NCBI GenBank assembly: GCA_041742135.1
Contig: JBGSJG010000004.1
Span: 299,773-363,772, forward strand
Source: Patescibacteria group bacterium
GTDB taxonomy: Bacteria > Patescibacteriota > Microgenomatia > UBA8517
Length of the DNA: 64,000 nt
Direction of reading: 5' to 3'
Shown here one piece after another: positions 2,736 to 43,952 of the stretch; within the stretch, counting starts at the first letter, position 1; each line of letters begins with the position of its first letter. The position numbers were made by a program, and so were the translations under genes. The notes beneath the pieces were generated by a model. It was not told the origin of the DNA, searched no databases, and worked only from the letters and a program-made list of their open reading frames with translations.

Positions 2736-3196
2736 AGCCAGTAGCAGGACAGGTGCAGCGAAGCGTACAGCAAGCCCGTGATGACGTGTTTAACGAGGCT
2801 GGAGCTTTTGCGCGAACTGCGCAAAGCCAAGTAACTGGAGTGGAAGCGCGGCCTGCAATTGGCCAAAGCACTCCACAACTTCCACCGGCTAATCAGTTTG
2901 CTACAACGCAAGAGTATTGGCAGGCGCAAGAGAGGCAAAACGAGGCAAGACTCGCAGAACTTCGCAAGTTTGTTCAAAACATAAAAAATCTTGACGAGGA
3001 GCAAAAGCGCGCCGAACAAATACGCGCGCAGCAAGAACAAGCTGTTGCCCAAGCTCAGGCAGCACAAATGCAAGAAACAGCCCGCGAAGAAAATAAGTCG
3101 GGCAATGTTTTATCTCGAGCCGTCAAGCGCATCAAAGGTCGTTTGGGCCAAGTCGGTAAAGGCAAAATGGAAAAAGGTAGAGGTGGAACAGGATAA
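2732..3196 (+). CDS. hypothetical Q/A-rich low-complexity protein
   Basis: 154 aa with a Gln/Ala/Glu-rich repetitive tail (QAQERQNEARLAELRKF...AQQEQAVAQAQAAQMQE). Its start overlaps the recR stop (ATGA). Confidence 0.45.
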   Translation: MKPVAGQVQRSVQQARDDVFNEAGAFARTAQSQVTGVEARPAIGQSTPQLPPANQFATTQEYWQAQERQNEARLAELRKFVQNIKNLDEEQKRAEQIRAQQEQAVAQAQAAQMQETAREENKSGNVLSRAVKRIKGRLGQVGKGKMEKGRGGTG

Positions 3197-4587
3197 TGAA
3201 ATTATACAATTCGTTAACCGGTAAGATTGAAGAATTTAAGCCTATTGAAGAAGGTTTGGTGAGGATGTATGCCTGCGGAATGACGGTTTATGATTTTGCT
3301 CACATTGGACATGGGAGAAAATATATAAATGATGACGTGCTTAGGCGCGCACTTGTGTATTTAGGCTACAGCGTTAAGCACGTCCAAAATGTAACTGATG
3401 TTGGGCATTTGGTCTCAGATGGTGATGAAGGTGAAGATAAGCTGGAAAAGGGAGCCAGAAAATACGGCAAGACTGTTTGGGAAGTCGCTGAGTTTTACAC
3501 AAAACATTTTTATGATTCGATGGACAAGCTCAACGTTTTGCGCCCTGACGTTATTGCAAAGGCCACAGATCACATCAAAGAGCAGATTGACTTAATTCAG
3601 AAGCTTTTTGAAAACGGTTTTGCTTACGATACACCAGAAGCAGTTTATTTTGATGTCTCGCACTTTGAAGGCTATGCTACCTTGTTTGGCAGGCAAGAAC
3701 TTGAGGATAAAAAAGCGGCTGTGCGTGAAGAGGTACACACTGATCCAAATAAGAAAAACCCTGCTGATTTTGCCTTGTGGTTCAAGCGAGTAGGGCGTTT
3801 TTCCGATCACGTTATGCACTGGGATAGTCCTTGGGGTGATGGCTTTCCCGGCTGGCACATTGAGTGCTCTGCTATGAGCATGAAGTATTTGGGGGATCAA
3901 CTTGATATCCACACAGGTGGCGAAGATCATATTCCCGTTCACCATCCTAACGAAATTGCCCAGAGCGAGGCCGCGACTGGCAAGCACCCTTTTGTTGGCT
4001 ATTGGTTCCATACCACTTTTTTGACGGTGGACGGAACTAAAATGAGCAAAAGCCTTGGAAACTTCTATACCATCGAGGACGTAATTGAAAAAGGCTATGA
4101 CCCCTTGGCTTTGAGATACTTGTTTTTGACTGCGCACTACCGAAAGCGGATCAACTTTACCTGGGACGCTTTGGAGGCGGCGCAAAATGCTCTTAATCGT
4201 TTGCGCGAATTTGTTCTCGTTTACAAAAGTAAAAAAACTGACGAGCGTACCATGTTGTCTGCTGAAAAGCTGGATAAAGTGGATCATTTTCGAGCGGAAT
4301 TTGGGAACTATGTTTCAGATGATCTTAAGATTCCGCAAGCTTTAGCTGTCTTATGGGATGTGGTTAAAAGCAATATTCCAGATGTCGATAAGCTGGATTT
4401 GATCTTAAACTTCGATGAAGTTTTGGGCTTAAGATTGGGAGAGCTTGAGACTGAAAAAATCAATCCTGAAGTTATGGAACTTGAAGATGAGCGTAGTCGC
4501 TTGCGAGCCGAAGGTAAGTATGAAGAGGCAGACAAAATAAGAGATAGACTTGCCAGTGAGTTTGGTATTAAAGTTAAAGATAAGTGA
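3196..4587 (+). CDS. cysS: cysteine--tRNA ligase
   Basis: 463 aa with the class I aaRS motifs 'HIGHGR' and 'KMSKSLGN' plus a CysRS anticodon-binding C-terminal region. Confidence 0.93.
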   Translation: MKLYNSLTGKIEEFKPIEEGLVRMYACGMTVYDFAHIGHGRKYINDDVLRRALVYLGYSVKHVQNVTDVGHLVSDGDEGEDKLEKGARKYGKTVWEVAEFYTKHFYDSMDKLNVLRPDVIAKATDHIKEQIDLIQKLFENGFAYDTPEAVYFDVSHFEGYATLFGRQELEDKKAAVREEVHTDPNKKNPADFALWFKRVGRFSDHVMHWDSPWGDGFPGWHIECSAMSMKYLGDQLDIHTGGEDHIPVHHPNEIAQSEAATGKHPFVGYWFHTTFLTVDGTKMSKSLGNFYTIEDVIEKGYDPLALRYLFLTAHYRKRINFTWDALEAAQNALNRLREFVLVYKSKKTDERTMLSAEKLDKVDHFRAEFGNYVSDDLKIPQALAVLWDVVKSNIPDVDKLDLILNFDEVLGLRLGELETEKINPEVMELEDERSRLRAEGKYEEADKIRDRLASEFGIKVKDK

Positions 4588-5213
4588 AAGTAATTATTGC
4601 TGCCCTGTTGTTACTAAACCTGCTTTTTAGCGGATACCTGTTTGTACGAATCCGGAACTTGCCTGCCGTTACGCAAACCTCAGGCGGCGAGTACATAATT
4701 AAGCAAGAAAAGGCGGATTTAAGTGCTTATGTAACCAAAGCTTACGTCGACGGCCTTTTTGCTAGTATTCCAGAAGATTCGGCGACGGCCACTCCAAGCC
4801 CCGCAGCAACTTCAAAGGCAGCAACCGTGGCAACTCCCGTTCCTCAGATTAATACTAGCTATTTGCCGATTGGTGGATCTTTGGCCACAACAAACACGGA
4901 CTGGACCGATGTTCCCGGAAGTGAGTTTTGGGCCGATTTTAATTCTGATTTTGGATCAAGTGCCACAGTGAGCTGGGAAGCAACTCTAAAAGTCGCAGCA
5001 GGTAGTGGGCGTGTAACTGCAAGACTTCTGGACTCAACACATGGAATCGAGTTACTCGAAAGCCAGATCCAAAGCGAGTCGGGTTCGTTTGTTGCCGTGA
5101 CTTCCGGGCGCATTTATCCATGGGCAGGCAAAAATCTTTACAAGGTACAAATCAAATCATTGTCTTCGACTGAGGCTAGTTTTGGCGGTGGCAAGGTAAA
5201 AGTGGTATATTAG
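4584..5213 (+). CDS. hypothetical membrane-anchored/secreted protein
   Basis: 209 aa with an N-terminal TM helix (VIIAALLLLNLLFSGYLFV) followed by a Ser/Thr/Ala-rich linker. No recognisable domain. Confidence 0.45.
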   Translation: MKVIIAALLLLNLLFSGYLFVRIRNLPAVTQTSGGEYIIKQEKADLSAYVTKAYVDGLFASIPEDSATATPSPAATSKAATVATPVPQINTSYLPIGGSLATTNTDWTDVPGSEFWADFNSDFGSSATVSWEATLKVAAGSGRVTARLLDSTHGIELLESQIQSESGSFVAVTSGRIYPWAGKNLYKVQIKSLSSTEASFGGGKVKVVY

Positions 5214-9570: not shown

Positions 9571-10535
9571 TACACTCCGCGTGTTGTCCCTCTTTTTTTA
9601 ATTAGTCCTTGGTCGGCAAGCTTTTTCAAATCATATCTTAGCGTCCGGTCGTTGACTTTAAGAAACCGTCTTTTTATCTGATCAAACTGCATAAGTTTCT
9701 GATCACGAATAAGGTTATAAATCTCGGCGCGTCTCGGCAGTAGATAATCTGTAACATCCGATTCACGTTTTGACAAAACCAACTCTTTTGATTTTTCAGC
9801 CGTGTCAGCAATTGCCGTAAGCATGAAAATTAAATAGTCGGTCGCGTCTTTTTCTGGCTCTTCCAGCATTCGGTAATATTCGCTTCTGTGGCCATCGATA
9901 TATTCTTCAAGAGGTAAGATGCCTTTCATGCCGTATCCTCCCTGAATTAATACTTTTTGAAGCAAAAGTCTACCTACGCGGCCTGAGCCATCCAGAAAGG
10001 GATGAATCTTCTCGAAAGTAAAGTGGGCCAAAGCAGCCTTTACTGGAATAAATTTTTCCTTATCACTGTTTATATATTTTATTAATCTGTTAACAAGCGC
10101 AGGGACTTGCTTTGGTGGAGGCGGCATGTAGATTGCAATCCCTGCTGAATTAAAGATTGCCTCCATATTGCGGCGCAATCTTCCAAGCGTGTCGGGCTCG
10201 ACTAGGCCTTTCATCGCAATTTCGTGAAGAGAAAGGATTTCTTTTACTGAAATATCACGAGAGCTTTTTTGGTTTAAGTAATTCAAAGCCTTCAAAACGT
10301 TCATGACTTCGAGCTTCTTTTGAGTTTCCGAGGAGCGCGCTAAGTCATCAAGAGTCAGAGGATTGCCTTCAACACGAGCTGAGAAGAGAGAGCTTTTGAG
10401 AGTGGAGTTTCTTCTGATATTATTTTCCACTTCGGGAGGGATTGGGAAAGAGTCGATTACTTGGCGGCTGGCTTCTATCGAAGACAGAAGAGTGGTGATC
10501 TCAGGGACGAGCCTATATCTAGGCGGAATAATCAT
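9555..10535 (-). CDS. Fic family protein (AMPylator-type) with C-terminal winged-helix
   Basis: Fic motif 'HPFLDGSGRVGRLL' (HxFx(D/E)GNGRxxR) and a C-terminal wHTH-like region (RTLRYDLKKLADQGLIKKRGTTRGVYY). Confidence 0.85.
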   Translation of the reverse strand: MIIPPRYRLVPEITTLLSSIEASRQVIDSFPIPPEVENNIRRNSTLKSSLFSARVEGNPLTLDDLARSSETQKKLEVMNVLKALNYLNQKSSRDISVKEILSLHEIAMKGLVEPDTLGRLRRNMEAIFNSAGIAIYMPPPPKQVPALVNRLIKYINSDKEKFIPVKAALAHFTFEKIHPFLDGSGRVGRLLLQKVLIQGGYGMKGILPLEEYIDGHRSEYYRMLEEPEKDATDYLIFMLTAIADTAEKSKELVLSKRESDVTDYLLPRRAEIYNLIRDQKLMQFDQIKRRFLKVNDRTLRYDLKKLADQGLIKKRGTTRGVYYESA

Positions 10536-10642
10536 AAATCACTTTACCAGATATGGCCTAATTTGGCCAGATGTGTCCTAATGTTACCCAATGCTATACT
10601 TTGCTTGTGAAGTATTTGTACTTTTCTAATCTTTCATCGGAG

Positions 10643-11311
10643 TTGCATTTAGCGCATTTTGTGGCTACTCGCGAGGCGGGCAACGTGAGTTTCTCGGTTG
10701 GTGATGATCCCAAGAAAGTATTGATTAATCGCGAAAATATCGCGAAGGATTTCGGTGTTTCGCTTGACGCCTTCACAGTCGCTGGCCTTGTGCATGGAAA
10801 CCATGTTGTAAAAGTTAGCGCAAAAACGCGAGGCCGTGGATCCACGAGCCCTCAAACGGTAATTCCCGAGACGGACGCAATGATCACAAATACCCCAGAT
10901 ATATTACTGATGGTTCCGGTTGCCGACTGTGTGCCAATTTTATTTTTTGATCCGATCAAAAAAGCCATAGGGATTGCTCATGCTGGCTGGCGAGGAACAC
11001 TCAAGGAGATTGCTAAGGCAACCGTTAACAAGCTTCACCAAGAATTTAACTGCAACGCGAGTGACATTAAAGTTGGGATAGGCCCGGCAATATGCGTGAG
11101 ACATTACGAGGTTGATGAGGCAGTTTTGCCGGGCGCTCGAGGCAATTTTGATCTGGTTGCCGCCAACAAAATTCAACTTCTAGACACTGGAGTAAAGCCG
11201 CAAAATATTGAAATCATGCCCTACTGCACTTTTGAGCGTACGGATCTTTTTTACTCTCATAGGGCGGAAAAATCTACTGGCCGCTTCGCCACTGGTATAA
11301 TACTTCTGTAG
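10643..11311 (+). CDS. YfiH/PgeF (DUF152) laccase-domain purine nucleoside phosphorylase / peptidoglycan editing factor
   Basis: Family motifs 'FSVGDDP', 'HGNHVVKV', 'DAMITNTP', 'PVADCVPILFFD', 'IAHAGWRGT', 'FYSHR'. The listed ORF starts at 10571, but the homologous region begins near TTG 10643 or GTG 10661. The start is therefore uncertain. Confidence 0.78.
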   Translation: MHLAHFVATREAGNVSFSVGDDPKKVLINRENIAKDFGVSLDAFTVAGLVHGNHVVKVSAKTRGRGSTSPQTVIPETDAMITNTPDILLMVPVADCVPILFFDPIKKAIGIAHAGWRGTLKEIAKATVNKLHQEFNCNASDIKVGIGPAICVRHYEVDEAVLPGARGNFDLVAANKIQLLDTGVKPQNIEIMPYCTFERTDLFYSHRAEKSTGRFATGIILL

Positions 11312-11312
11312 G

Positions 11313-11912
11313 ATGAGAAAACATCCAATCCTGTTTTTGCTGGGTTTTGCAGCTGGCTATTTGCCGGTTCTTTTTTTGTTGTCGCGTGCTAGCTCCAGCC
11401 CTGCGACTGTGTTGGCGGATGAGCCGGCACCTGAAATTATAAGTGTGACACTTGAAACTCACGCGCCCGAGGAAACTGTGGAGCCAGTAGTTTTAGCGGT
11501 AGCCGAGGAGGCGACAACTCCTAGACCGACAGAGTCTCCCACACCTGCACCTCCCACACCTGCACCTTCCACGCCGTCGCCTACAGCTTCACCAGAACCG
11601 ACGCCAACTCCAGACGTCTGGTCGCCTCCGGCGATCGAGCCGATATTTGCCAACTATGCTGGAATGTATAGCGTAGATAAAAATATTTTAGAGCGACTTG
11701 CGAACTGTGAAAGCCATTTTAACGAAAATGCTCAAAATGGCGATTATCTTGGAATGTTTCAATTTTCCACTTCAACTTGGATGAGTTATAGAATGCGCAT
11801 GGGCCTAGACGCAAATCCTGATTTACGCACAAATATCGAAGAATCCATCAAAACTGCGGCATATGTCATTCAGCAACAAGGCGTTTCTCCTTGGCCGAGC
11901 TGCCTAAGGTAG
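11313..11912 (+). CDS. secreted Pro-rich protein with Rpf-like transglycosylase-like domain
   Basis: Signal/TM segment, then a PTPAPPTPAPSTPSP linker. C-terminal 'CESHFNENAQNGDYLGMFQFSTSTW' matches the transglycosylase-like (Rpf) signature 'CESGGN...GGLQFS.STW'. Confidence 0.6.
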   Translation: MRKHPILFLLGFAAGYLPVLFLLSRASSSPATVLADEPAPEIISVTLETHAPEETVEPVVLAVAEEATTPRPTESPTPAPPTPAPSTPSPTASPEPTPTPDVWSPPAIEPIFANYAGMYSVDKNILERLANCESHFNENAQNGDYLGMFQFSTSTWMSYRMRMGLDANPDLRTNIEESIKTAAYVIQQQGVSPWPSCLR

Positions 11913-11981: not shown

Positions 11982-13784
11982 ATGGAAAAAAGCATACGTA
12001 ACGTTGCAGTTATTGCTCACGTTGATCATGGTAAAACAACTTTGGTGGATGCGATTCTTAAGCAATCGCATGTTTTTCGTGAGAATCAGGAAGAAATGCA
12101 GCAAACCCAGATCATGGATAAGAATGAACTGGAGCGCGAGCGTGGAATTACCATTTTGGCCAAAAATTGTGCCATCGATTTTGGTGATGTAAAAATTAAT
12201 ATTATTGACACTCCCGGTCACGCTGATTTTTCAGGTGAAGTTGAGCGAACTCTTGGTATGGCGGATGGGGCGCTTCTTATTGTTGACGCTCAAGAAGGCC
12301 CAATGCCTCAGACAAGGTTTGTGCTTAAAAAAGCACTTGAGCTGGGCCTCAAAATTATTGTCGTTATAAATAAAATTGATAAAAAATTTGCAGACCCAAT
12401 TGCAACGCTTAGCAAAGTGGAAACTTTGTTTTTAGAGCTGGCAAGCTTTGAAGCACAGCTTGATTTTCCGGTTGTTTACGCTATTGGGAGGCGCGGTGTG
12501 GCTTTCCATGAGCTTCCGAGTGATCCAGAGGCAGCTGGGGACATTTTGCCACTTCTTACAACTATCGTAAAAGAAGTTCCGGAAGCCGAAGTTTTGGAAG
12601 GTAGTTTTAAAATGGTTGTAAGCTCGATTGAGAGCGATGCACATTTAGGCCGTATTTTGATTGGAAAAGTTCACCAAGGCGTAGTAAAGCGAGGAATGAA
12701 AGTTGTCGTTGCTCATGAGCAAATGCGTGTTCTAACGATTGAGAAATTGTTTGTGTACCACGGGCTTGGCAAAGAGGAAGTGGCAGAGGCAGGAAGCGGC
12801 GAGATTGTGGCTTTTTCTGGGGTTGAGGCAAAAATCGGAGATACAATAGCTGATCCAGCGGACTCGGAAGCTCTCCCGGCTATAGCAATTGGTGAGCCAA
12901 CACTTCATATGACAATCGGACCAAATACTTCGCCTTTTGCTGGCCGTGAAGGCAAGTTTGTAAACGGCAGGCAAATCGAAGAGAGGCTTACGCACGAGCT
13001 TGAAAGTAACTTAAGCATGCGAATGGAAAAGTTGGGAAATGGAAAGTATAAAGTTTCCGGTCGTGGCGAGCTCCACCTTTCGATCCTTCTTGAAACGATG
13101 CGCCGCGAAGGCTATGAAATGGAAGTTGGCAAGCCAGAAGTCATAACAAAAGTTATCGATGGTGAAACCTGCGAGCCTTGGGAAGAAGTTTCTGTGATTG
13201 TGCCGGCTGAGTTTACCGGAGTAATTACCGAGGAATTCGGTAAAAGGTATGCCAAGATGGTTCGAATGGAACCAGTAAATGAAGACGTGGAGTTTATTTA
13301 TCACATGCCAACCCGTGCTCTCATAGGGCTTCGCAGTTATTTATTAACAGCTACGAAAGGAACTGTCGTCATGAGTTCTGTGTTTTTGGCGTTTGAGCCG
13401 ATGGGTAAGCCTCTTCCAAAAATTCGGAGGGGAGTGCTTATTGCTAGCCAAAGTGGTGAAGCGCTGTCGTATGGCTTGGAAAATGCTCAAGGACGGGGAG
13501 TGTTGTTTGTGGGCCCCGCAGAGGCCGTTTATGAAGGCATGGTAGTAGGTGCCAACTCTAAAGACGAAGATATTCCAGTAAACGTTTGTAAAGGTAAAAA
13601 ATTGACGAATATGCGCTCAAAAAGCTCTGACGGCGTAGTACAGTTAACTCCGCCCACCAAGCTTTCTTTGGAGCAATCTCTGGATTTCTTGGAGAATGAT
13701 GAGCTTTTGGAAATTACGCCTCTTAATACGCGTCTTCGCAAAAAGTTTTTAAGTGAACTTGAGCGCAAAAGACACAGAGCGTGA
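11982..13784 (+). CDS. typA: translational GTPase TypA/BipA
   Basis: 600 aa with G1 'AHVDHGKTT', G3 'DTPGHADF', G4 'NKID' and EF-G-like domains. Confidence 0.93.
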   Translation: MEKSIRNVAVIAHVDHGKTTLVDAILKQSHVFRENQEEMQQTQIMDKNELERERGITILAKNCAIDFGDVKINIIDTPGHADFSGEVERTLGMADGALLIVDAQEGPMPQTRFVLKKALELGLKIIVVINKIDKKFADPIATLSKVETLFLELASFEAQLDFPVVYAIGRRGVAFHELPSDPEAAGDILPLLTTIVKEVPEAEVLEGSFKMVVSSIESDAHLGRILIGKVHQGVVKRGMKVVVAHEQMRVLTIEKLFVYHGLGKEEVAEAGSGEIVAFSGVEAKIGDTIADPADSEALPAIAIGEPTLHMTIGPNTSPFAGREGKFVNGRQIEERLTHELESNLSMRMEKLGNGKYKVSGRGELHLSILLETMRREGYEMEVGKPEVITKVIDGETCEPWEEVSVIVPAEFTGVITEEFGKRYAKMVRMEPVNEDVEFIYHMPTRALIGLRSYLLTATKGTVVMSSVFLAFEPMGKPLPKIRRGVLIASQSGEALSYGLENAQGRGVLFVGPAEAVYEGMVVGANSKDEDIPVNVCKGKKLTNMRSKSSDGVVQLTPPTKLSLEQSLDFLENDELLEITPLNTRLRKKFLSELERKRHRA

Positions 13785-14884
13785 ACAAAAAAATAATCGC
13801 AGCAATTTTTCTGTTAGTCACCGTTATTGTTTCTGCTGTCTTGCTTTTGCTAAACAAGCCTCGACCTGCTCTTGAAACCAAATTTGCCCCTGCCAGCTCA
13901 TCTGTGCCAATTGCGTCAGCTACGCAGGGCATTGGATACAAAAATCCGCCTGAAAGCGTAAACTTGGGTTCACTCAACCACACTTATCAAACATTTAATA
14001 ACTGCGGACCCGCAACGCTTTCTATGGCTTTAGGGTGGCTTGGGAAAAACGTTTCTCAAAAAGAATTGGGAGATAAAATGCGCCCGTGGCAGGTTGAAGA
14101 TGGTGATAACGACGACAAATCAATTTTCACCAGCGAGTTCGTGGATTGGGCGCATGAGTATGGTTTTGAGGCTCTTGCCCGCCCGAACGGGGACATTGAA
14201 ACTTTGAAGCGCTTTACGGCCAACGGCATTCCGGTTGTTGTTAAAACGTATTTGCATTTAAATGATGACATTGGCCACTTCCGAATCGTCAAAGGTTTCG
14301 ATGAGCGCGAGCAAGTAATCATTCAAGACGACTCGTTTGAAGGGCCTAATCGCCGCATCTCGTACTTCGATTTTTTGAGTCTTTGGCAGCCATTTCATTA
14401 CGTTTACATTATTGTTTACACTCCGGAACAATCAGAACTTGTGAACGCGATCTTGGCCGAGGCGGCCATTGAGGAAAATTCTTGGGAAAGCTTAATTACG
14501 CGTTCCAAAAAAGAGGCGCAGCTTACTCCAGATAGCGTATATCCAATTTTCAATATCGCAGTAGCAAGCTATTATCTTGGAGATTATGAAAAGACGGTGG
14601 AGTCTTTCGAGAAAGTAGAAGGACGCCTTCCCAAAAGAATGCTTTGGTATCAGCTTGAGCCTTTATTGGCTTACCAAAAACTTGGGCAACACGACAAGAT
14701 ATTTAGCATTTCGGAGAAGATTTTAAATGGCGGCAATAGAGCGTATTCTGAGCTTTATCAAATTAGAGGAGAGATATATTTGGCACAGGGAAACCGAGAC
14801 GCCGCAAGGGAAGAATATCAGAAGGCTGTGAGCTATAATGTTAATTACGAAGCAGCAAAAACTGCTCTTCGTGATTTACAATGA
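13781..14884 (+). CDS. secreted peptidase C39-like domain protein with C-terminal TPR
   Basis: N-terminal TM/signal, then 'NNCGPATLSMALGWLG', which is the Cys motif of C39-like (papain-fold) peptidases. C-terminal TPR-like repeats follow (YYLGDYEKTVESFEK...IYLAQGNRDAAREEYQKAV). Confidence 0.55.
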   Translation: MNKKIIAAIFLLVTVIVSAVLLLLNKPRPALETKFAPASSSVPIASATQGIGYKNPPESVNLGSLNHTYQTFNNCGPATLSMALGWLGKNVSQKELGDKMRPWQVEDGDNDDKSIFTSEFVDWAHEYGFEALARPNGDIETLKRFTANGIPVVVKTYLHLNDDIGHFRIVKGFDEREQVIIQDDSFEGPNRRISYFDFLSLWQPFHYVYIIVYTPEQSELVNAILAEAAIEENSWESLITRSKKEAQLTPDSVYPIFNIAVASYYLGDYEKTVESFEKVEGRLPKRMLWYQLEPLLAYQKLGQHDKIFSISEKILNGGNRAYSELYQIRGEIYLAQGNRDAAREEYQKAVSYNVNYEAAKTALRDLQ

Positions 14885-16599
14885 AAAAGCTAATTTTAGG
14901 AGTTTTATTTTTACTAGTTTTTGCCTTCCCCAGCAGAGCTTCAGCCCAGGTGGCTCCTTATGTGATCGATGATTTTAGCTCGGAAATTACAATTAACCAA
15001 GACAGCTCAGTAACAGTCAAAGAAACAATAGACGTTACATTTAATCAAAACCGCCACGGAATTTATCGAGATATTCCGGTTGTTTATCACACCCAAGAGA
15101 AAACTATAAATTCAAAACTACGTGTTATCTCGGTCAACGAAGAGTATGAAACAAGCCGTGAGGGTGACTATATTCGAATCAAAATTGGCGATCCTGATGA
15201 ATATGTTTTGGGTAAAAAGACTTACGAGATTGTTTACAGAGCAAGAAACATAATTCAAAGATTTGAGGACCACGACGAGCTTTATTGGAATGTGGCCGGA
15301 GATGGATGGGACACTTCGCTGGGCTCAGTAGAAGCTTCGGTAATCTCGGACTTTGCAAGCATTTCCAATATCCAATGCTTTGAGGGACAAGTCGGAGTAA
15401 CCACAAAGTGTGAAGAGCTTAGCCACGACGCCAAGAGCGCCAATTTTACAGCGGGAACAAATCTTGGTATGGGTCGAGATATGACCATTGTTGTTGCACT
15501 TGACCGCAATAATTCAATCAACTTTGGTGCCACTTTATCCGACCAAATCAGTGACTATTGGGGGTATCCAGTAGTTTTTGTACCATTTCTTTTGATGTTT
15601 TACTTTTGGTACAAAAAGGGCCGAGACGAGCGGCTGGTTGGCGATAACATTTACTACGAGCCAGACAAAAAGCAAACCGAGACAACTCCAATGTTTAACA
15701 AAAGAGAATTTTTACCGATGGTTTATTCACCAATTGCTGGTCTCACACCTTCGGAAGTCGGCACTTTGATTGACGAGCGAGTTGATATCCACGACGTTGT
15801 CGCTGAAATTGTGGAATTGGGAAGACTAGGCTACCTAAAAATTGAAAAAATAAACAAGAAACTAGCTAAAGACGATTATCTAATTAAAAGATTAAAAGAA
15901 GATAGCGGAAAGCTTCGTGAATATCAGAAGTATCTTTTTGAGTCGATTTTTGAGTATGGGGAAAACGGCGAGGTAAAGCTATCGGAGCTGAAAAAGAAGT
16001 TTTACACCAAGCTTGAAAAATTCAAAAATAAGCTTTATGCACACGTTGCGTCGGAAGGCTTTTTCTTTGCAGACCCGAATCGCGTGAGGGCTTTGTGGAT
16101 CGTGTCGGCAATAGCCATAGAGGCGGTGACGTTTGGGTTGGCAATATTGTTTTTCACTCAAAATTACGATTTTTTGCCGATAATAATAAATTCGGTTTTG
16201 GCAATTCCAGCTGTTATTCTGGCCTTCGGCATGCCTCGCAAAACCGCTAAAGGGTATGCGATGTACAGGCAAAGCGAAGGGCTAAAGTTTTATTTAGGCA
16301 AAGGCAAGTGGCGAGAGGAAATAAAAGAGAAGCAACTTTTCTTGGATGAAATTTTGCCATTGGCAATTGCACTTGGAGTTGTCAACAAATTGGCTCGCGA
16401 CATGCAGGAGCTAGGTGTGAAAGAGCCAAGCTATATGAGTATGGGCGGGTTGGCTTGGGCAAGCTCGATTAATAGTTTTAACTCAGCCGCAGCAACCACC
16501 ATGGCTCCTCCAAGCTCTTCTGGTGGGTACTCGGGAGGATCTGGGTTTTCAGGCGGAAGCGGCGGTGGTTTTGGTGGCGGCGGTGGTGGAAGCTGGTAG
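14881..16599 (+). CDS. DUF2207 family membrane protein
   Basis: Signal peptide, a large extracytoplasmic domain, several TM helices and the characteristic Gly-rich C-terminus 'GGSGFSGGSGGGFGGGGGGSW'. Confidence 0.65.
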   Translation: MKKLILGVLFLLVFAFPSRASAQVAPYVIDDFSSEITINQDSSVTVKETIDVTFNQNRHGIYRDIPVVYHTQEKTINSKLRVISVNEEYETSREGDYIRIKIGDPDEYVLGKKTYEIVYRARNIIQRFEDHDELYWNVAGDGWDTSLGSVEASVISDFASISNIQCFEGQVGVTTKCEELSHDAKSANFTAGTNLGMGRDMTIVVALDRNNSINFGATLSDQISDYWGYPVVFVPFLLMFYFWYKKGRDERLVGDNIYYEPDKKQTETTPMFNKREFLPMVYSPIAGLTPSEVGTLIDERVDIHDVVAEIVELGRLGYLKIEKINKKLAKDDYLIKRLKEDSGKLREYQKYLFESIFEYGENGEVKLSELKKKFYTKLEKFKNKLYAHVASEGFFFADPNRVRALWIVSAIAIEAVTFGLAILFFTQNYDFLPIIINSVLAIPAVILAFGMPRKTAKGYAMYRQSEGLKFYLGKGKWREEIKEKQLFLDEILPLAIALGVVNKLARDMQELGVKEPSYMSMGGLAWASSINSFNSAAATTMAPPSSSGGYSGGSGFSGGSGGGFGGGGGGSW

Positions 16600-37811: not shown

Positions 37812-38183
37812 CTTCTTTACTTCAATATATATTTTTAGCGTATAATTGTTGTACTTATAACAAGATGTCAGGCTCAAACTTAGCAGTCGGAACTCACAGG
37901 ACGGGACTAAACCTCCAGGCTCAGACTATCAGTTAGAGCCAGAACCAACATTTTCTGAAGGGAAAGTAATCCCATTTCAGTTTACAGTGATGATGCCTCC
38001 ACCGAGGTATTATCCGATGATTTTGGAGAGGGATGAGAAGGGGAGGATAGTAAACTCCAAGTTTCCTGAAATGCAGTTTTAATAAAAAAAGATTGATTTT
38101 TCGAGGTAAATGATTGTTTTATATGTTGCCTTTTGATACACTACAAGCATATTTTACAAAAGACACTGCCTTAAAATTATGAA

Positions 38184-39266
38184 ATGAATAACGGAAATAC
38201 AAAGTTCATTATAGGCGGTGGTATATCGGGACTTATATACGGCTTCTATAATAGAGACTTTCAAATTATTTCACCTGACGTTGGAGGGAAGCTAAAAAAT
38301 AGCTATCTTACTTCTACAATACTTCTGCACGATACTCCAGAAACAAAAAGATTACTTCAAGACTTGAAAATAGTACCAGAACCAAAAGCACAGGTAATGC
38401 GATATTTCTATCAAGATAAGCTTCAAGAAAATATTCCAGCAAATCTAAAAGAGCTTATGGTTGCAAAGAAACTTACCCCTTGGGAAGAATTAAACAAACT
38501 TAATTTTGAATTTAAGATTACCGACACCACTCTTTCAACAGATGATGTATACATACCTATTTTTAAAATTTCTCTCGACAAAGTTATAAAAGCTCTAGCG
38601 AAAGAAGTAAAGATTGTAAAAGATAAAGTGGTAAGAATCACAGAAGACGAAATTATAACCGAAAAAGGACGCTATCGTTATACAGATCTGATTTCTACAA
38701 TACCAGCACCAGTCTTTTGGAAAATATATGGTCGAGAGAAAAATTTGAAGTCTTTACCTGAGACATTCGTATTAGCTAAATCTAATCCAGTAGAAAAAAC
38801 GAATTTGCATTGGGATCTAGTCTATTTCTTGGACAAGAAAATACCATATACACGGGTCAATAGATATTCAAACGATTCTTATTTATATGAGTTCACAGGT
38901 GAATTAAACAAAACTCAAATAAAGAAATTTCTGCCTAAAGCTGAAATTTTAAACGTTTATACTGATCGTTACGGAATTGTAATCACTGATCTTAACAATA
39001 TTCCTCCTCCCAATGTGCGTTTTGTTGGCAGATTTGCGACATGGAATCACACTTGTAAAGTTCAAGATGTTGTTAAAGATTCGATAGCAAGATATGATTT
39101 TCTTTCAATTTGGAATAAACAGAAAGAATTTAATGCCAACTTTTTCGATTTTAATGTACGTGATATCGAACTCCAACAAAAAACTAACCAAGGAGTTCGT
39201 ACTACATATAGAAGACGAAGCCCACGAACTTTTAAGAGAAGTGAATTGGAAAATGGGCCAATATAA
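38184..39266 (+). CDS. FAD/NAD(P)-binding Rossmann-fold protein, UDP-galactopyranose-mutase/amine-oxidase-like
   Basis: N-terminal dinucleotide-binding 'KFIIGGGISGLIYGF' (GxGxxG). C-terminal 'VRFVGRFATWNHTCKVQDVVKDSIA' resembles the Glf C-terminus 'FIGRLGTYRYLDMD..IA'. The last ~170 nt (39094-39266) overlap the MazG-like ORF in another frame and translate to low-quality sequence, so the true stop is uncertain. Confidence 0.5.
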   Translation: MNNGNTKFIIGGGISGLIYGFYNRDFQIISPDVGGKLKNSYLTSTILLHDTPETKRLLQDLKIVPEPKAQVMRYFYQDKLQENIPANLKELMVAKKLTPWEELNKLNFEFKITDTTLSTDDVYIPIFKISLDKVIKALAKEVKIVKDKVVRITEDEIITEKGRYRYTDLISTIPAPVFWKIYGREKNLKSLPETFVLAKSNPVEKTNLHWDLVYFLDKKIPYTRVNRYSNDSYLYEFTGELNKTQIKKFLPKAEILNVYTDRYGIVITDLNNIPPPNVRFVGRFATWNHTCKVQDVVKDSIARYDFLSIWNKQKEFNANFFDFNVRDIELQQKTNQGVRTTYRRRSPRTFKRSELENGPI

Positions 39267-39468
39267 ACATATAGAAGTTGATAGGGCAAGGTTATTAGAA
39301 GAGTGGATTGATGTTTTTAAGTATTGGCTTGGATTAGGTAATGTATGGGGATTTACTCTGGAAGATTTTGTAAATGAGTTTTGGAGAAAGTCGTCAATTG
39401 TGGATGAACGTTTTAAACAATATTTCAAAGATAAAAGTAAAAAAGATGATGACAAAAGCAGTGGTTAA
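39094..39468 (+). CDS. MazG-like / all-alpha NTP pyrophosphohydrolase (dimeric dUTPase-like)
   Basis: 'HIEDEAHELLREVNWK' (helix 1, ExxE) and 'RARLLEEWIDVFKYWLGLG...FTLEDFVNEFWRK' (helix 2, EExxD then K...R) match the MazG/dimeric-dUTPase core. The ORF is intact in frame 1 from ATG 39094, with alternative starts at 39133 and 39253. Confidence 0.55.
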   Translation: MIFFQFGINRKNLMPTFSILMYVISNSNKKLTKEFVLHIEDEAHELLREVNWKMGQYKHIEVDRARLLEEWIDVFKYWLGLGNVWGFTLEDFVNEFWRKSSIVDERFKQYFKDKSKKDDDKSSG

Positions 39469-39501
39469 TGTTACTATAGTCAATATTAAATTATAATTAA
39501 T

Positions 39502-40431
39502 ATGCCTCATAATCCAAAAGCAAAAATCCATAAAAAACCTGCTGAAGTATTAAAAGGTGAAACTCCTCGATCAGAATTTGCCGACTCTCTTGATTCTGTA
39601 AAAGTTGATTTAATTTATTATCCAGATTCGAAGATTGATCTAACGGCCTACGCTTTTCAAAAAGCAACCTGGATGACCGATCCTTATATTCCCAACAAAG
39701 ACAAAAAGAGAGATAAAGAAATACTTAAAGATTTAAAGATACATGCATTTGAGAAAAAAGGCCTTCCTTTATCTCTGGAGCTTTATGATTTTGTTTTTTC
39801 CGTTTCGGGGATAACCAGACTTGTCACTCACCAGATTGTGCGAAATAGGATAGGCGCAACTTATTCCCAACAGTGTTCGGGAGATAAAGACTGGAGACAT
39901 CATAGGGTTTTGGTTCCAAGAAGTATTTATAAAAACAAAAAGATTTATGAAAAATTTAGATCTCAAGTCCTTGAAAACAAAAAACTATATGCAGACATGT
40001 TAGATACAATGGAAGTTCCAGTATTGGATGCTAGGAGGATTCTTCCTCACTGTCTAGAAACATTTATTTACGTAAAGTTTAATTTAGTTACTTTAGCTAC
40101 TTTTATACCAAAAAGAGATTGTGTGCAGACTCAAGAACCTGAAATGGTAATGGTTGCTAGGAGGATGAGAGAGGCGGTATTGAAGAAATTCCCGAATATT
40201 GAACCCATGCTTAGGAATAAGTGTAAAGATGGTAAGTGCTTCTATACCTTATCCGACAGACAAGTAGGTACATCGATGTTTGTGCCAGATAAGGATCATG
40301 ATTTTGACTATAATAAAAACAACTTCTTTTATGATAAGACAGTCCGTCAAATGGTATATGACTTACCAAAAGTGCCAAATGAATATTATATCGGATCTGA
40401 AAAAGTAACGAAAAAGAACTTTTTGAAATGA
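39502..40431 (+). CDS. ThyX-like flavin-dependent thymidylate synthase homologue (divergent, extended)
   Basis: 'ITRLVTHQIVRNRIGATYSQQCSGD' aligns with the ThyX motif 'ARQWFRHRIASYNELSGRY'. 'ARRILPHCLETFIYVKFNLVTLATFIPKR' aligns with '[29 protein letters not shown]'. At 309 aa it is larger than ThyX (~220 aa), and RHR is replaced by RNR. Confidence 0.72.
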   Translation: MPHNPKAKIHKKPAEVLKGETPRSEFADSLDSVKVDLIYYPDSKIDLTAYAFQKATWMTDPYIPNKDKKRDKEILKDLKIHAFEKKGLPLSLELYDFVFSVSGITRLVTHQIVRNRIGATYSQQCSGDKDWRHHRVLVPRSIYKNKKIYEKFRSQVLENKKLYADMLDTMEVPVLDARRILPHCLETFIYVKFNLVTLATFIPKRDCVQTQEPEMVMVARRMREAVLKKFPNIEPMLRNKCKDGKCFYTLSDRQVGTSMFVPDKDHDFDYNKNNFFYDKTVRQMVYDLPKVPNEYYIGSEKVTKKNFLK

Positions 40432-40898
40432 CAGAACATGAACAGCGTATAACAATACTGTCATTTGAAGGTCCCGATAAGGTAGGTAAGTCCACCCTTA
40501 TTAGAGAAGTTAATAGAGCAGCCAACTATCGTTTTTTATGTATAGACCGTTTTACTGGTTCAGCCTGGGTCTATGATAAATTGTCTGGAAGAAGAGATAG
40601 AACTGATTCGATCAGTACGGCAGAGGGTGAGCTAAGCAGACTTGAAAATGTTGACGTTTTAAATGTACTACTTTCGTGCGATCCCGAAGTTCTTAGGGAA
40701 AGGATTAGACAAGAAGATGAATACAGTGATGCAAGGTTAGAGCATCTTGATCAGGCGTTAGAGTATTATAGGGAGTATGCCCAAGAGATAGCTAGACTGC
40801 CTATTATCGAGATAGATACAACTGACAAGTCGGTAGAAGATACTGTTCAAGAGATATTATCTAAAGTTGAATCATATGAGCAAAGCGATAATCGATAA
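40428..40898 (+). CDS. thymidylate-kinase-like P-loop dNMP kinase (shortened)
   Basis: P-loop 'ILSFEGPDKVGKST' resembles Tmk 'IxFEGxDGxGKTT'. 'LCIDRFTGSAWVY' resembles the Tmk DRY/DRH region. At 156 aa it lacks the ~55 aa NMP-binding insert of canonical Tmk. It overlaps the upstream stop (ATGA). Confidence 0.62.
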   Translation: MTEHEQRITILSFEGPDKVGKSTLIREVNRAANYRFLCIDRFTGSAWVYDKLSGRRDRTDSISTAEGELSRLENVDVLNVLLSCDPEVLRERIRQEDEYSDARLEHLDQALEYYREYAQEIARLPIIEIDTTDKSVEDTVQEILSKVESYEQSDNR

Positions 40899-41421
40899 AA
40901 TTCAAGAAATAACCGAATCCATAAAAAAAGATGGTAAGGAAGTGAATGGTACGAAAGAATTAAGTGGAGTTGTTATATCAAAACTTGATGTATCAAAAAT
41001 GGACTTGATCAAGGAAGAGAACGCAGTACGAGATTACTACTCAAAGCTTGGTATAAATACACAAGCCATCAGGAGTTTGGAACATAATCTATATGAGTTT
41101 ATTTATAGAGGATTAAGACAAGTGGTAGAACAAACTTTGTACTTCGATAAAATCCAGGACTATACCTCAAGAAGATTTGTTTTTTCTACGACCGATTGTA
41201 TTTCTCATGTGCAGATTCTCTATAGGCCAGGCCAAGCTGAGTTATTTATGTATGTAAGGAGTACTGATGTTGTAAAGCTTTTCCCTTGGGATATGCTTTT
41301 TGCTTGCAAATTACTAAATAGAGTTTTACTGGAATCTGGATTTCCCGAAGCCAAAAAGAGATTTGTTACGATTATGGTGGCTTCAGCCCATTTTTATCTT
41401 AAGCCAGCTGCAATGTACTAA
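40867..41421 (+). CDS. minimal thymidylate-synthase (ThyA) fold protein
   Basis: 'TSRRFVFS', 'DCISHVQ', 'LFMYVRSTDVVKLFPWDMLFACKLL' and 'SAHFY' align with the ThyA motifs 'SRRIIVSAWN', 'PCH.FFQFYV', '[26 protein letters not shown]' and 'DTHLY'. At 184 aa it lacks the ThyA C-terminal ~50 aa. Confidence 0.55.
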   Translation: MNHMSKAIIDKIQEITESIKKDGKEVNGTKELSGVVISKLDVSKMDLIKEENAVRDYYSKLGINTQAIRSLEHNLYEFIYRGLRQVVEQTLYFDKIQDYTSRRFVFSTTDCISHVQILYRPGQAELFMYVRSTDVVKLFPWDMLFACKLLNRVLLESGFPEAKKRFVTIMVASAHFYLKPAAMY

Positions 41422-41423
41422 TA

Positions 41424-42017
41424 ATGAAATATGAACGATTGACTGAGCTGAATACTCAAATTCAAGCAACTTCAAGGTGTGATAATGATACAACTCCTGT
41501 AATAAACGAATTGAGGCCTTCTCAGAGATATCTAATTATCAGTTCAGATCCATCTTCTGATACTGATAAAGACAAAGACGTATTAGATAAACACTCTGGT
41601 TTCGAAGAGAGGGTAATTTCTTTAGTGTTCTTTGGCTCTGATGATGCAGAGAGCTTGGAGCGAGTAAGAGCTGATTATCAAGGATATAAAGACAAATTTT
41701 TAAACAATTTTTATTGGACGCACTACTCCAAATGTTATGCAAAAGGTAATCCTGATAGTTTTTGGGCAGATAAGTTTCTGAAGCAAGAAATAGAGTTGTT
41801 TGAACCAGAATTAATTGTAATATTTGGCAGTAAACCAGCTGATTTCTTATTTGGGAAGGGCAAGCTAAAAGATAGGGTCAATACTGTAATGGAATATGAA
41901 GGTGTCCCCACAATTTGCTCGCTTCATCCTTCTAGAGATTGGAACATGTTTAGGAGAGAGGAATACGAATTTTCTGAAACTTGGGTTTTGATTCGTTCGA
42001 AAATAGATATAGAATAA
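41424..42017 (+). CDS. uracil-DNA glycosylase superfamily (family-4-like) protein lacking canonical motif A
   Basis: 'FYWTHYSKCYAKGNP' is close to 'YITNIVKCRPP'. 'WADKFLKQEIELFEPELIVIFGSKPADFLFG' is close to 'DKWLLKQIELIAPQIIVPLGAVAAEFFLG'. 'ICSLHPS' is close to the motif B 'HPAYLLR'. The motif A position reads 'LVFFGSDDAE' rather than 'GEGPG'. Confidence 0.58.
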   Translation: MKYERLTELNTQIQATSRCDNDTTPVINELRPSQRYLIISSDPSSDTDKDKDVLDKHSGFEERVISLVFFGSDDAESLERVRADYQGYKDKFLNNFYWTHYSKCYAKGNPDSFWADKFLKQEIELFEPELIVIFGSKPADFLFGKGKLKDRVNTVMEYEGVPTICSLHPSRDWNMFRREEYEFSETWVLIRSKIDIE

Positions 42018-42021
42018 AATT

Positions 42022-42477
42022 ATGAAACCATTACAAATCACCTCAGTTATTGTGGTATTAAAGTGTCAAGACAATTTTTTGCTAGTCCAAAGAAGTGATA
42101 ATGACGACATTTTTCCAGGTAAGTGGCAGAATATGGGTGGAAAGATTGAGCTTGGAGAAACAGTAGAAAATGCAATAAAAAGAGAAGTTAAAGAAGAAAT
42201 TGGTCTTGAGGTAAAATCTCATCCAATATTTTTACAAAGTTACTCTTGGAAGAAAGATGATGACTCTCCAGTAAGACTTGGGTTAATTTTTTTGATTAAT
42301 TTGGAAGGCAAACAAGATAATTATAAGATTCAGCTTGATGAAGAATTATCTAATTATGCTTGGGTTGATCTAAAAGAAGCTGAAGTAATGAATAAAGACG
42401 ACAAACTGATTGGTAAAGATAGTCCTACAGGCACTTTTGGGCAATTATCTCAAATTAAATTGCTTAATGGAAAATAA
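42022..42477 (+). CDS. Nudix hydrolase
   Basis: A complete Nudix box 'GGKIELGETVENAIKREVKEEIGL' (GX5EX7REUXEEXGU). Confidence 0.85.
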   Translation: MKPLQITSVIVVLKCQDNFLLVQRSDNDDIFPGKWQNMGGKIELGETVENAIKREVKEEIGLEVKSHPIFLQSYSWKKDDDSPVRLGLIFLINLEGKQDNYKIQLDEELSNYAWVDLKEAEVMNKDDKLIGKDSPTGTFGQLSQIKLLNGK

Positions 42478-43039
42478 AGTTAAAATCAGACTCAGATTGG
42501 TGATTATCAAGGAAGATAAACTTCTTGCATACTACGATTCAATAGATGATTACTATTTTTATATCGGAGGTAAACTTGAGTTTGGTGAGACTATTGAGGA
42601 TGGATGGAAAAGAGAAATAAAAGAAGAGCAAAGATACATCAAAGCCTATGGAGCTGAAATGATTGATTCTGAGCAATTGAAAGAATCTACCGAAGATTTG
42701 AAAAAGCAGAAAAAGTCTATTGAACAACAAATTTTATCAATGCAAAAAGACACTGTTGTTGAGCATTTTGACTATCCAGAAGACAAAGAAATTGAAGAAT
42801 TTTGCAAAATAGCCCATAAGGTTGTTGGTAATATGGGCTTTGAGGCTAAACAGTCAATTGTCCGAAAGGTGGTAGATACGATAGTAGGAACGCAAAACGA
42901 CATAAAAGTATATGGCCATTTACCCTTGAATACGAGTATAATTGCAAATGTATGGAAAGGAGGTATCCAAGATGTCAAGTTCGAAACTAGCAGTCGGAAT
43001 AGTTGGCTTACCAAATGTGGGGAAGTCCACGCTTTTTAA
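42467..43039 (+). CDS. Nudix-like protein with incomplete Nudix box (possibly degenerate)
   Basis: 'GGKLEFGETIEDGWKREIKEE' is not followed by xGU. The C-terminal half is charged and coiled-coil-like. The last ~67 nt overlap the ychF RBS and start. Start taken at MENKVKIR (42467). Confidence 0.35.
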   Translation: MENKVKIRLRLVIIKEDKLLAYYDSIDDYYFYIGGKLEFGETIEDGWKREIKEEQRYIKAYGAEMIDSEQLKESTEDLKKQKKSIEQQILSMQKDTVVEHFDYPEDKEIEEFCKIAHKVVGNMGFEAKQSIVRKVVDTIVGTQNDIKVYGHLPLNTSIIANVWKGGIQDVKFETSSRNSWLTKCGEVHAF

Positions 43040-43952
43040 CGCCCTTCTCAAGCGCCAGCAGGCTTATGTGGCGAATTTCCCGTTCGCGACCATCGAGCCT
43101 AATATTGGAGTGGTTCCAGTTCCTGATGCCCGCCTTGCAAAATTGGCCGCAATATATAACGCGCCGATTGTTCCTGCAACAATTGAGTTTGTTGATATCG
43201 CGGGCCTGATTGCTGGAGCTAGTAAAGGTGAGGGTCTGGGCAATAAATTTTTGTCACACATTCGTGAGGTTGATGCTATTTGCCATGTTGTGCGTGTCTT
43301 TAGTGACCCGGACATTATAAAGGAAGGCTCGGTTGACCCGAAGGCCGATTTTGAAACCATCAAGACTGAGCTTGATTTGGCCGACCTAGATACTGTTGAG
43401 CGGCATGAGAAAAAGAAAAATGCCAACGTTGAAGAGCTGCAGCTTTTCTCTAAAAAACCAATCCTTATCGTGTTAAATGTAGACGAAAACGATCTTCGTG
43501 ATGCCAACAAAATTGAGCTTAAATATGCACAAGAGCTTGGCCTTCACGCTTCGGCCGTTATTGCAATTTCTGCACGCGTCGAGTCTGAGCTTTCAAGTCT
43601 TTCTGAAAGCGATCAAGAGGCATATCTGTCGGATTTGGGAGTTACCGATTCGGGCCTTACGCGCTTAATCAAAAAAGCATTTGAGACGTTGGGATTAATT
43701 ACTTTTTTGACTGCTGGAGAGAAAGAAGTTCGTGCGTGGACAATCGATCGGGACATGAGAGCCCAAGACGCGGCGGGAGTGATTCACACTGATTTTATTA
43801 AAAATTTTATAAAAGCTGATGTGTGTAATTTTGATGATTTTGTAGAACTGGGTGGGTGGAAAGCTTGTCGTGAGGTGGGGAAAGTTAGAAGCGAAGGCCG
43901 TGATTACATTATGCAAGATGGCGACGTCGTTGAGTTTAAGATTGGGAATTAA
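42972..43952 (+). CDS. ychF: redox-regulated ribosome-binding ATPase YchF
   Basis: 'LAVGIVGLPNVGKSTLFNALL' G1, 'NFPFATIEPN', 'DIAGLI' and a C-terminal TGS domain. A strong RBS 'AAGGAGG' lies 7 nt upstream of ATG 42972. Confidence 0.9.
   Translation: MSSSKLAVGIVGLPNVGKSTLFNALLKRQQAYVANFPFATIEPNIGVVPVPDARLAKLAAIYNAPIVPATIEFVDIAGLIAGASKGEGLGNKFLSHIREVDAICHVVRVFSDPDIIKEGSVDPKADFETIKTELDLADLDTVERHEKKKNANVEELQLFSKKPILIVLNVDENDLRDANKIELKYAQELGLHASAVIAISARVESELSSLSESDQEAYLSDLGVTDSGLTRLIKKAFETLGLITFLTAGEKEVRAWTIDRDMRAQDAAGVIHTDFIKNFIKADVCNFDDFVELGGWKACREVGKVRSEGRDYIMQDGDVVEFKIGN

Follow-up and report, generated by a model that had tools for sequence, protein, structure and literature searches.

Two phage systems provide the closest described parallels to the locus examined here. 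Three phages that make 5-hydroxydeoxycytidine carry a YorR/Tmk-like 'nucleotide kinase' gene next to a homologue of thymidylate synthase (TS) (PMC13326640), and in phage T4 the route to a modified cytosine nucleotide runs from a pyrophosphohydrolase (gp56) through a TS-fold modifier of deoxycytidylate (dCMP) (gp42) to a dedicated kinase (gp1). YorR-like kinases are represented by YorR of the Bacillus subtilis prophage SPbeta and phage phi3T (2axp, 3kb2), an uncharacterised 'putative nucleotide kinase', and by RB69 gp45, DLP3 gp78 and RL38J1 gp214, the 'nucleotide kinase' of phage 5-hydroxycytosine clusters (PMC13326640). We analysed a 64-kb stretch of contig JBGSJG010000004.1 from a Patescibacteria group bacterium (the window), in which an open reading frame (ORF) at 40428..40898 (+ strand) encodes a 156-residue protein that belongs, as judged from its sequence, to the Tmk superfamily, with YorR and RB69 gp45 as its nearest relatives. 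This mini-kinase has lost the whole lobe by which thymidylate kinases cover their substrate. It is the third gene of a six-gene cassette in the order MazG-like, ThyX-like, kinase, a very short TS homologue (mini-TS, orf184), a protein resembling uracil-DNA glycosylase (UDG) and a Nudix hydrolase.

The ORF was as described in the initial annotation, which had reported a 156-residue kinase with the P-loop FEGPDKVGKST and an IDRF motif. The P-loop occupies residues 13-23 (nucleotides 40464-40496, + strand) and IDRF residues 39-42 (40542-40553, + strand), DRF itself being residues 40-42 (40545-40553), while the LID-helix arginine R92 is encoded at 40701-40703 (+ strand); the other sites recognised were S45, Y49, R55/R56 and D130-T131. 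The start codon and the stop codon of the ThyX-like gene upstream overlap by 4 bp (ATGA), and the last 23 nt of the kinase gene are common to orf184. The two motifs start 26 residues apart, in line with the distance of about 25 first noted. From the P-loop Lys21 to Asp40 there are 19 residues, compared with 47 in YorR (phi3T copy), 55 in RB69 gp45 and 83 in Escherichia coli Tmk, and the earlier figure of about 70 for the canonical enzyme was roughly right.

Profile comparisons located the shortening. The Pfam family Thymidylate_kin (PF02223) matched the protein with a score of 32.7, above the gathering cut-off of 27 (E 7.5e-8); its coverage was partial, limited to residues 38-143 and corresponding to profile positions 84-185 of 185, so that the alignment passes over positions ~20-83 and the profile jumps from the P-loop to the DRY region. 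Similarly, profile alignments to the S. aureus Tmk in the PDB fell into two pieces, the P-loop and the C-terminal part. An AlphaFold2 (AF2) model built from 31 homologues, with a predicted local distance difference test (pLDDT) of 91.4 and a predicted template modelling score (pTM) of 0.85, contained four strands (8-14, 36-40, 75-83, 126-130) and six helices, and the first strand after the P-loop helix ended directly in DRF. No candidate element that could substitute for the nucleoside monophosphate (NMP)-binding lobe was found in this model. Because of the motif spacing, the split profile alignments and the strand order of the model, we judge that strand 2 and the helical NMP-binding lobe of Tmk are absent from the protein and not divergent. 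The initial annotation had proposed such a loss, and a divergent version of the region was looked for in the profile alignments; the region was absent instead.

The protein is about 64 residues shorter than Tmk over this segment, which comprises strand 2 and helices and which we take to bear the thymine-stacking Phe, the O4-binding Arg and the RxP phosphate clamp. Outside it, canonical Tmk and the mini-kinase share the P-loop EGxDxxGK(S/T), the DRx motif with its Ser and Tyr spacing, the LID-helix Arg and the C-terminal strand and helix, and differ in the NMP-binding lobe with its strand 2, RxP clamp and base-stacking Phe and Arg. The D-R-x3-S-x3-Y register (D40-R41-F42...S45...Y49) is that of the E. 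coli Tmk segment DRHDLSTQAY. A MAFFT alignment that placed the E. coli Tmk TREPGG beneath DRFTGS of the mini-kinase was judged an artefact, since this register and the Pfam alignment both indicate the DRH region. When the family profile was aligned by hhalign to the single E. coli Tmk sequence, only the P-loop was aligned, because a local alignment cannot span a 64-residue gap; the comparison with Tmk was therefore based on the Pfam and PDB hidden Markov model (HMM) alignments and on motif spacing.

The short form is shared by a large family. A large protein database returned 38 homologues of 144-170 residues (E <= 8e-36), assigned to Microgenomates or Patescibacteria wherever named, and 24 residues were invariant across an alignment of 31 homologues. 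Searching 1.84 billion cluster representatives with the family profile, we obtained 901 clusters (50% identity) at E <= 1e-3, 265 of them at <= 1e-10, with nearly all members between 135 and 160 residues. The 19-residue Lys-to-Asp spacing was found in all six members measured, namely four of the cassette family (the window protein included), a 145-residue protein of Geobacillus phage GR1 and the kinase domain of one fusion protein. Among 149 diverse representatives the conserved positions were G15, D17, G20, K21, D40, R41, S45, Y49, R55, R92 and T131, with G15/D17/G20/K21 at 96-100%, R41 at 100% and R92 at 97%; E14 was kept in 81%. Since the homologues have both the short length and the invariant residues in common, the 156-residue protein is best regarded as a member of a large conserved family, neither a chance ORF nor a truncation. 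We take the conserved set to represent the P-loop with its Asp, which reads the 3'-OH of thymidylate (dTMP), the clamping Arg in the DRY motif, a Ser and a Tyr one helix further on, and the Arg of the LID helix. Type-I Tmks have a basic P-loop residue in place of LID arginines, and K18, a position occupied by Lys or Arg in 72% of members, would be a residue of this kind.

No second Tmk-like gene was found within the window, and neither Pfam, PHROG, PADLOC and NCBIfam nor a literature search returned a curated family or a paper on the short kinase form or on its fusion to a mini-TS. Within 50,697 deposited phage genomes the kinase was nearly absent, occurring only in GR1 and in one faecal contig, and scans of viral contigs with two alignments gave a single IMG/VR contig, which carried the same cassette without obvious phage genes. 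A separate observation concerns the PADLOC model 'VakA' of 163 positions, which matched the kinase in two stretches at 2.2e-9; a literature search on VakA found nothing.

YorR was the best sequence match of the kinase in the PDB (5.8e-6 with the single sequence, 1.6e-7 with the profile), and PHROG 761, 'thymidylate kinase', matched at 2.5e-19. Foldseek searches with the model gave template modelling (TM) scores of 0.66 for YorR and 0.64-0.69 for S. aureus Tmk. YorR is likewise a small protein of phage origin, and it resembles the mini-kinase in the EGPD start of its P-loop, in IDRF and in the C-terminal half; it differs in its atypical Walker A sequence (CCFKST), in a strand and a helix still present between the P-loop helix and DRF, and in its neighbours, a 5'(3')-deoxyribonucleotidase and DNA methylases with no TS-like gene. 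RB69 gp45 (182 residues) aligned to the family by hhalign with 93% probability, having in common the P-loop and the DR..S.WVY motif, and carried an insertion of about 36 residues exactly where the mini-kinase has none. Between P-loop helix and DRF, YorR and gp45 thus keep a reduced insert of 28-36 residues, which the mini-kinase lacks altogether. Genes of the gp45 type adjoin a dCMP-modifying TS homologue, the same pairing as in the window cassette, and gp45 has never been reported fused to its synthase, unlike the mini-kinase, which is fused in relatives. The GR1 protein aligned at 97% over its full length. Tmk, gp45, YorR and the mini-kinase therefore form a series of decreasing size.

Membership in two other groups, the T4 gp1-type kinases and the 5-hydroxymethyldeoxyuridine DNA kinases (discussed below), was examined and rejected. 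T4 gp1 (1dek/1del), a protein of 241 residues with fold elaborations of its own, was absent both from the PDB profile matches (E <= 1) and from the top 50 Foldseek matches, so that no similarity to it was detectable in sequence or, among those top 50, in structure; the mini-kinase resembles gp1 in the working of the pathway, not in family membership. Matches to deoxynucleoside kinase, shikimate kinase and AAA families all scored under the respective cut-offs.

The partner gene gives contextual support to a modified substrate. The ORF orf184 lies at 40876..41421 (+ strand) and encodes 181 residues from the ATG at 40876 (the ORF list places its start at TTG 40867). Among the best 150 of the 901 kinase representatives, 20 were at least 200 residues long, and in 17 of these a homologue of orf184 follows the kinase domain on its C-terminal side (HMM E 1.7e-57 to 3e-8); one other carries a dUTPase_2/MazG-like domain resembling the C-terminal part of the first cassette gene. 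The homologues of orf184 are 60-90% identical. Since neither Pfam nor PHROG returned a significant match, orf184 constitutes an unclassified short branch of the ThyA/dCMP hydroxymethylase superfamily, a placement that draws on profile and model comparisons. Its AF2 model (pLDDT 93.6) gave 396 PDB matches at E <= 1e-3 in Foldseek, with the dCMP hydroxylase AfhB of phage HY126 (9iqu) on top at 2.5e-8; almost all of the best 50 of the 396 were TS-fold proteins, many of them ThyA, together with the CMP hydroxymethylase MilA. The best PDB sequence match of the orf184 profile was T4 dCMP hydroxymethylase (gp42; 8e-6), in whose alignment the Cys of the family corresponds to Cys148 and the invariant Asp to Asp179, and hhalign to the RB69 5-hydroxy-dCMP synthase gp48 gave 93%. 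A tblastn search of the 50,697 phage records with orf184 gave no match.

The sites recognised in orf184 were SRR (R99), the catalytic Cys108, R128-S129-T-D131, an Asp139 at the position of ThyA Asn177, and H172..Y174, and the family invariants were R99, C108, R128, S129, D139 and H172. The ThyA spacings of 20 residues from Cys to Arg and 11 from Arg to the N177 position are kept. An Asp at the N177 position was present in every mini-TS examined, and D169 was retained in orf184 (RSTD); among the 16 fusions in which the latter position aligns, it was Asn in 11 and Asp in five. In full-length enzymes N177D confers preference for dCMP and D169N is the mark of flavin-dependent 5-hydroxy-dCMP synthases; L143D/E shows a correlation with hydroxymethylation (PMC13326640). 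By extrapolation, orf184 would be a dCMP methylase or hydroxymethylase, and many of the kinase::mini-TS fusions would hydroxylate dCMP.

The explanation that we favour, with about even confidence, is that the ORF encodes a minimal Tmk-superfamily deoxynucleoside monophosphate (dNMP) kinase that serves a phage-style pyrimidine-precursor pathway run by the six-gene cassette; judging from its pairing with, and fusion to, the mini-TS, its substrate is most likely a modified pyrimidine nucleotide. The fold, the motifs, the family conservation, the fusions and the gene order are observed, whereas the substrate, the direction of flux and the chemistry of orf184 are inferred. The protein keeps the ATP site (P-loop, K18 and LID-helix R92) and, of the acceptor site, the residues on its core side, namely Asp17, the 3'-OH reader in Tmk, the Arg41 clamp, Ser45, Tyr49 and Arg55. 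As for the direction of flux, the MazG-like and Nudix pyrophosphohydrolases would convert dCTP and dUTP, the deoxycytidine and deoxyuridine triphosphates, to monophosphates and so deplete the canonical triphosphates, as in the gp56/gp42/gp1 pathway of T4. Then dCMP would receive a C5 group from orf184, dTMP would come from the ThyX-like enzyme, and the mini-kinase would raise 5-substituted dCMP, and probably dTMP as well, to the diphosphate, from which a cellular nucleoside diphosphate kinase would complete the triphosphate. The base pocket left open by the lost lobe could tolerate a C5 substituent. Two reports bear on such a pathway: the corresponding dCTPase of RB69 shows structural matches of MazG type (PMC13326640), and classic TS and ThyX show an inverse correlation across jumbo phages (PMC7824862). 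The presence of a TS-like and a ThyX-like protein together therefore suggests that one of the two has diverged to another job.

Several points weigh against this explanation. The family and its nearest relatives, YorR and RB69 gp45, are uncharacterised, and the verified 5-hydroxy-dCMP kinase of RB69 is a gp1-type dNMP kinase, not gp45 (PMC13326640). The N177D and D169N rules derive from full-length TS homologues, and their use on a mini-TS of 181 residues is an extrapolation. An acceptor would have to be gripped without the helices of the Phe stack and the Arg clamp. In addition, one relative (locus L019, a 5-kb contig) has the kinase and the UDG-like gene without a mini-TS. Finally, because the kinase is translationally coupled to the ThyX-like gene directly upstream, dTMP alone could be its substrate.

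This last point leads to the view that the protein is a very small dTMP kinase, which would do the work of Tmk for the ThyX-like enzyme within an ordinary thymidylate and uracil-exclusion set (dUTPase-like, ThyX, Tmk, UDG), which we consider possible although doubtful. The Pfam score over the gathering cut-off, the label 'thymidylate kinase' given by JGI to two of the homologues, the conserved Tmk-type P-loop EGxDxxGK and DRxxxSxxxY motif, the 4-bp overlap and the recurrence of ThyX, dUTPase_2, dCMP deaminase and UDG near the relatives are all consistent with it. However, the thymine-recognising residues of Tmk presumably fall in the deleted segment, the dTMP-kinase equivalog TIGR00041 gave a score of 25.7, far under its cut-off of 83.25, relatives are repeatedly fused to the Asp-type mini-TS and not to ThyX, and a phage such as GR1 would have no need of its own kinase for ordinary dTMP. 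If specificity is broad, the dTMP-kinase and modified-dCMP readings overlap. The suggestion in the initial annotation that the substrate might be other than free dTMP holds in part: a modified dNMP is strongly favoured by context, 17 of the 20 long relatives being fused to a mini-TS with the dCMP-specifying Asp, and activity on plain dTMP, given the gene directly upstream, may well be present too. The same annotation had also mentioned a substrate embedded in DNA, as for the 5-hydroxymethyldeoxyuridine (5-hmdU) DNA kinases (5-HMUDK), and this part was not borne out. Such an enzyme would phosphorylate a DNA base or the hydroxyl of a C5 side chain, activating a 5-hydroxymethyl or 5-hydroxy pyrimidine for substitution in the polymer or the nucleotide. 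An open acceptor site left by the lost lobe could admit a polymer, M6 gp54 (187 residues) is likewise a small phage P-loop kinase with a TS-family partner, 5-HMUDK co-occurs with a TS-family hydroxymethylase (PMC5889632), and the cassette holds a UDG-superfamily protein with an altered catalytic motif. Nevertheless, the kinase had no match to PF18748 (Pfam, E <= 1), to which M6 gp54 matches at 7.7e-18, and hhalign of the family against gp54 aligned 24 P-loop columns only, with a probability of 49%. The aG/PT-PPlase (HhH glycosylase-like), pyridoxal phosphate (PLP) and radical-SAM partners that define 5-HMUDK hypermodification pathways (PMC5889632) were not found among the window cassette genes. 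Moreover, the conserved R41, R55 and R92, together with K18, read as the set of a kinase acting on a phosphate acceptor and not on a hydroxyl, and we regard a DNA or side-chain kinase as highly improbable.

Two further activities were considered in the light of the remaining matches. A deoxynucleoside kinase, acting upstream of the TS-like enzymes to salvage deoxycytidine or thymidine as monophosphates, would be useful to salvage-dependent Patescibacteria; the precomputed PF01712 matches on several homologues, the Foldseek matches to deoxyadenosine and deoxycytidine kinases (TM about 0.6) and a top BFVD match named 'deoxyguanosine kinase' point in this direction. We nonetheless hold it to be quite unlikely, as the PF01712 match of the protein itself is weak (E 7e-4; 19.8 bits under a cut-off of 27), the motif register is Tmk-like, and the general-base Glu after strand 2 of these kinases would, as we assume, fall in the deleted region. 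The top Foldseek matches in the PDB by E value were complexes of Fap7 with Rps14 (Fap7/AK6; 1e-6), and the NCBIfam model PRK03839, 'putative kinase', matched at 2e-9. With the fusion to a protein partner, these could indicate a Fap7/AK6-like ATPase that binds and regulates the mini-TS and is no small-molecule kinase. Yet the TM scores of 0.54-0.56 were lower than those of YorR or Tmk, PRK03839 reached 37 bits against a cut-off of 152, and the whole family keeps the DR-S-Y motif and the P-loop Asp that is specific to Tmk, which leaves this activity with hardly any probability in our estimation.

Returning to the dNMP kinase of a modified-pyrimidine pathway, a more specific version of it would have the mini-TS partner supply the missing acceptor lobe. 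Kinase and orf184 would then form an obligate complex with a composite kinase site and direct handover of 5-substituted dCMP, a two-enzyme channel of about 340 residues leading to a non-canonical deoxycytidine diphosphate. We put this forward tentatively and consider it unlikely; were it true, Patescibacteria, or elements in them, would carry modified cytosine in their DNA. More generally, if the dNMP kinase reading is right, the mini-kinase would be among the smallest nucleotide-monophosphate kinases known, and the Tmk core could function without its substrate-covering lobe, which bears on the specificity of NMP kinases and on enzyme minimisation. The kinase/mini-TS pair and its fusions constitute a widespread unannotated module, with 901 clusters and almost no deposited phage genomes, and this module probably makes a non-canonical pyrimidine deoxynucleoside triphosphate. 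Its occurrence on a transferable island in Patescibacteria raises the possibility that modified cytosine is used by these ultra-small bacteria or by the mobile elements in them.

The first gene of the cassette (38184..39468, + strand) combines an N-terminal GxGxxG domain of an unplaced family with a C-terminal MazG/dUTPase_2-like nucleoside triphosphate pyrophosphohydrolase. In four relatives it is a single ORF of 421-462 residues; in the window it is split into ORFs of 360 and 124 residues by one extra A in the A-run at about 39176-39181, where the window reads caacaaaaaacta and the relative L014 reads caacaaaagctg. Either a sequencing error or a genuine frameshift may account for the extra A, or the run may be a slippery site. 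The N-terminal domain of about 330 residues (38184-39180; 5779-7050 in the relative L001) opens with a dinucleotide-binding-like GGGISG and gave no Pfam, PHROG, NCBIfam or PDB match, a four-sequence profile included.

The ThyX-like protein (39502..40431, + strand) is of a long form, with 309 residues, and matched Pfam Thy1 at 9e-23. Most relatives aligned had 305-331 residues, with 281 in the relative L016. Its RHR motif is RNR in the window and RTR, RAR or RHR in relatives, SGDK stands at the region compared with what we take to be the canonical SGRY, and 16 residues were invariant across eight sequences. Because of these motif changes and of a TIGR02170 score of 57.8 under the cut-off of 87.9, the protein may not be an ordinary thymidylate synthase. 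Among the relatives aligned, the long form was always found together with the mini-kinase.

Downstream of orf184, the UDG-superfamily protein (41424..42017, + strand; 197 residues) is family-4-like, with a weak resemblance to the Thermus thermophilus enzyme 1ui0; motif A, GEGPG, is changed to SSDPS and motif B, HPS, is kept. The Nudix hydrolase (42022..42477, + strand; 151 residues) is nearest among NCBIfam models to the NudI/MutT-type (d)NTP pyrophosphohydrolases, with scores under the cut-offs. It also matched the PADLOC candidate PDC-S07 at 2.7e-15.

The same six-gene order was found in metagenomic contigs and in metagenome-assembled genomes of Patescibacteria and Saccharimonadales. Kinase relatives at 30-35% identity belong to phage or mobile-element replication modules. 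Downstream of a primase-polymerase, one of these loci (L017) holds UDG, a kinase::mini-TS fusion, a 331-residue Thy1, DNA polymerase B, SNF2, Cas4 and an integrase; another (L018) holds primase, dCMP deaminase, ThyA, mini-TS, kinase, dUTPase_2, the alpha subunit of DNA polymerase III and Thy1. In L016 the order is Thy1, kinase and mini-TS, and in L019 UDG, kinase, Cas4 and integrase. A UDG-like gene adjoins the mini-kinase in L017 and L019, and the kinase is paired with a mini-TS and a long ThyX in L016, L017, L018 and phage GR1.

GR1 is a cultured Geobacillus phage (L005; OK896991.1, 21193-33573) and would allow the chemistry to be checked directly. Besides the 145-residue mini-kinase, it encodes a 322-residue ThyX and a 151-residue mini-TS-like protein, with genes for a glycosyltransferase, an HD protein, a nucleoside 2-deoxyribosyltransferase and a nitroreductase nearby, and this gene set suggests a modified, possibly glycosylated base. 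A literature search for DNA modification in GR1 gave papers that, by title and abstract, deal with its endolysin or review thermophilic phages.

Among the relatives, L001 has genes for radical-SAM enzymes on both sides of the cassette (3179-4588, 469 residues with SPASM; 10171-11544, 457 residues) and, further on (13433-15004), a GT4 glycosyltransferase and an APH-type kinase; none of these extra genes is present in the window. In another relative (L006; CAYVNK010000052.1, 4.7 kb) the same cassette, at 72% nucleotide identity, was binned as 'uncultured Gammaproteobacteria', and this is probably either a mis-binned contig or evidence of transfer.

The guanine-plus-cytosine (GC) content dips to 0.33-0.39 over the cassette block, compared with about 0.43 elsewhere in the window. 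In blastn comparisons with four relatives the shared block spanned about 38178-42464 of the window at 69-88% identity, with different flanks in each; those of the window are cellular and encode FMN reductase, YchF, SSB and CtpA-like and HtrA-like proteases. An imperfect direct repeat (27/32) brackets the low-GC island of about 5.1 kb. Its left copy (37861..37892, + strand) is a decayed remnant of the start of ychF (MSGSNLAVG, followed by stop codons), and its right copy (42968..42999, + strand) is the true 5' end of the intact gene (MSSSKLAVG). The duplication takes in an upstream GTATAATTG box common to both copies, and the extended alignment runs over 37812-38010 and 42919-43117. The arrangement suggests that the island was inserted at the ychF 5' end, yet no integrase was found inside it. 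Between the cassette Nudix gene and ychF, overlapping the start of the latter, there is also an ORF of 209 residues (42410-43039) with a weak and partial NUDIX match (E 0.002), which may be a decayed second Nudix gene or spurious.

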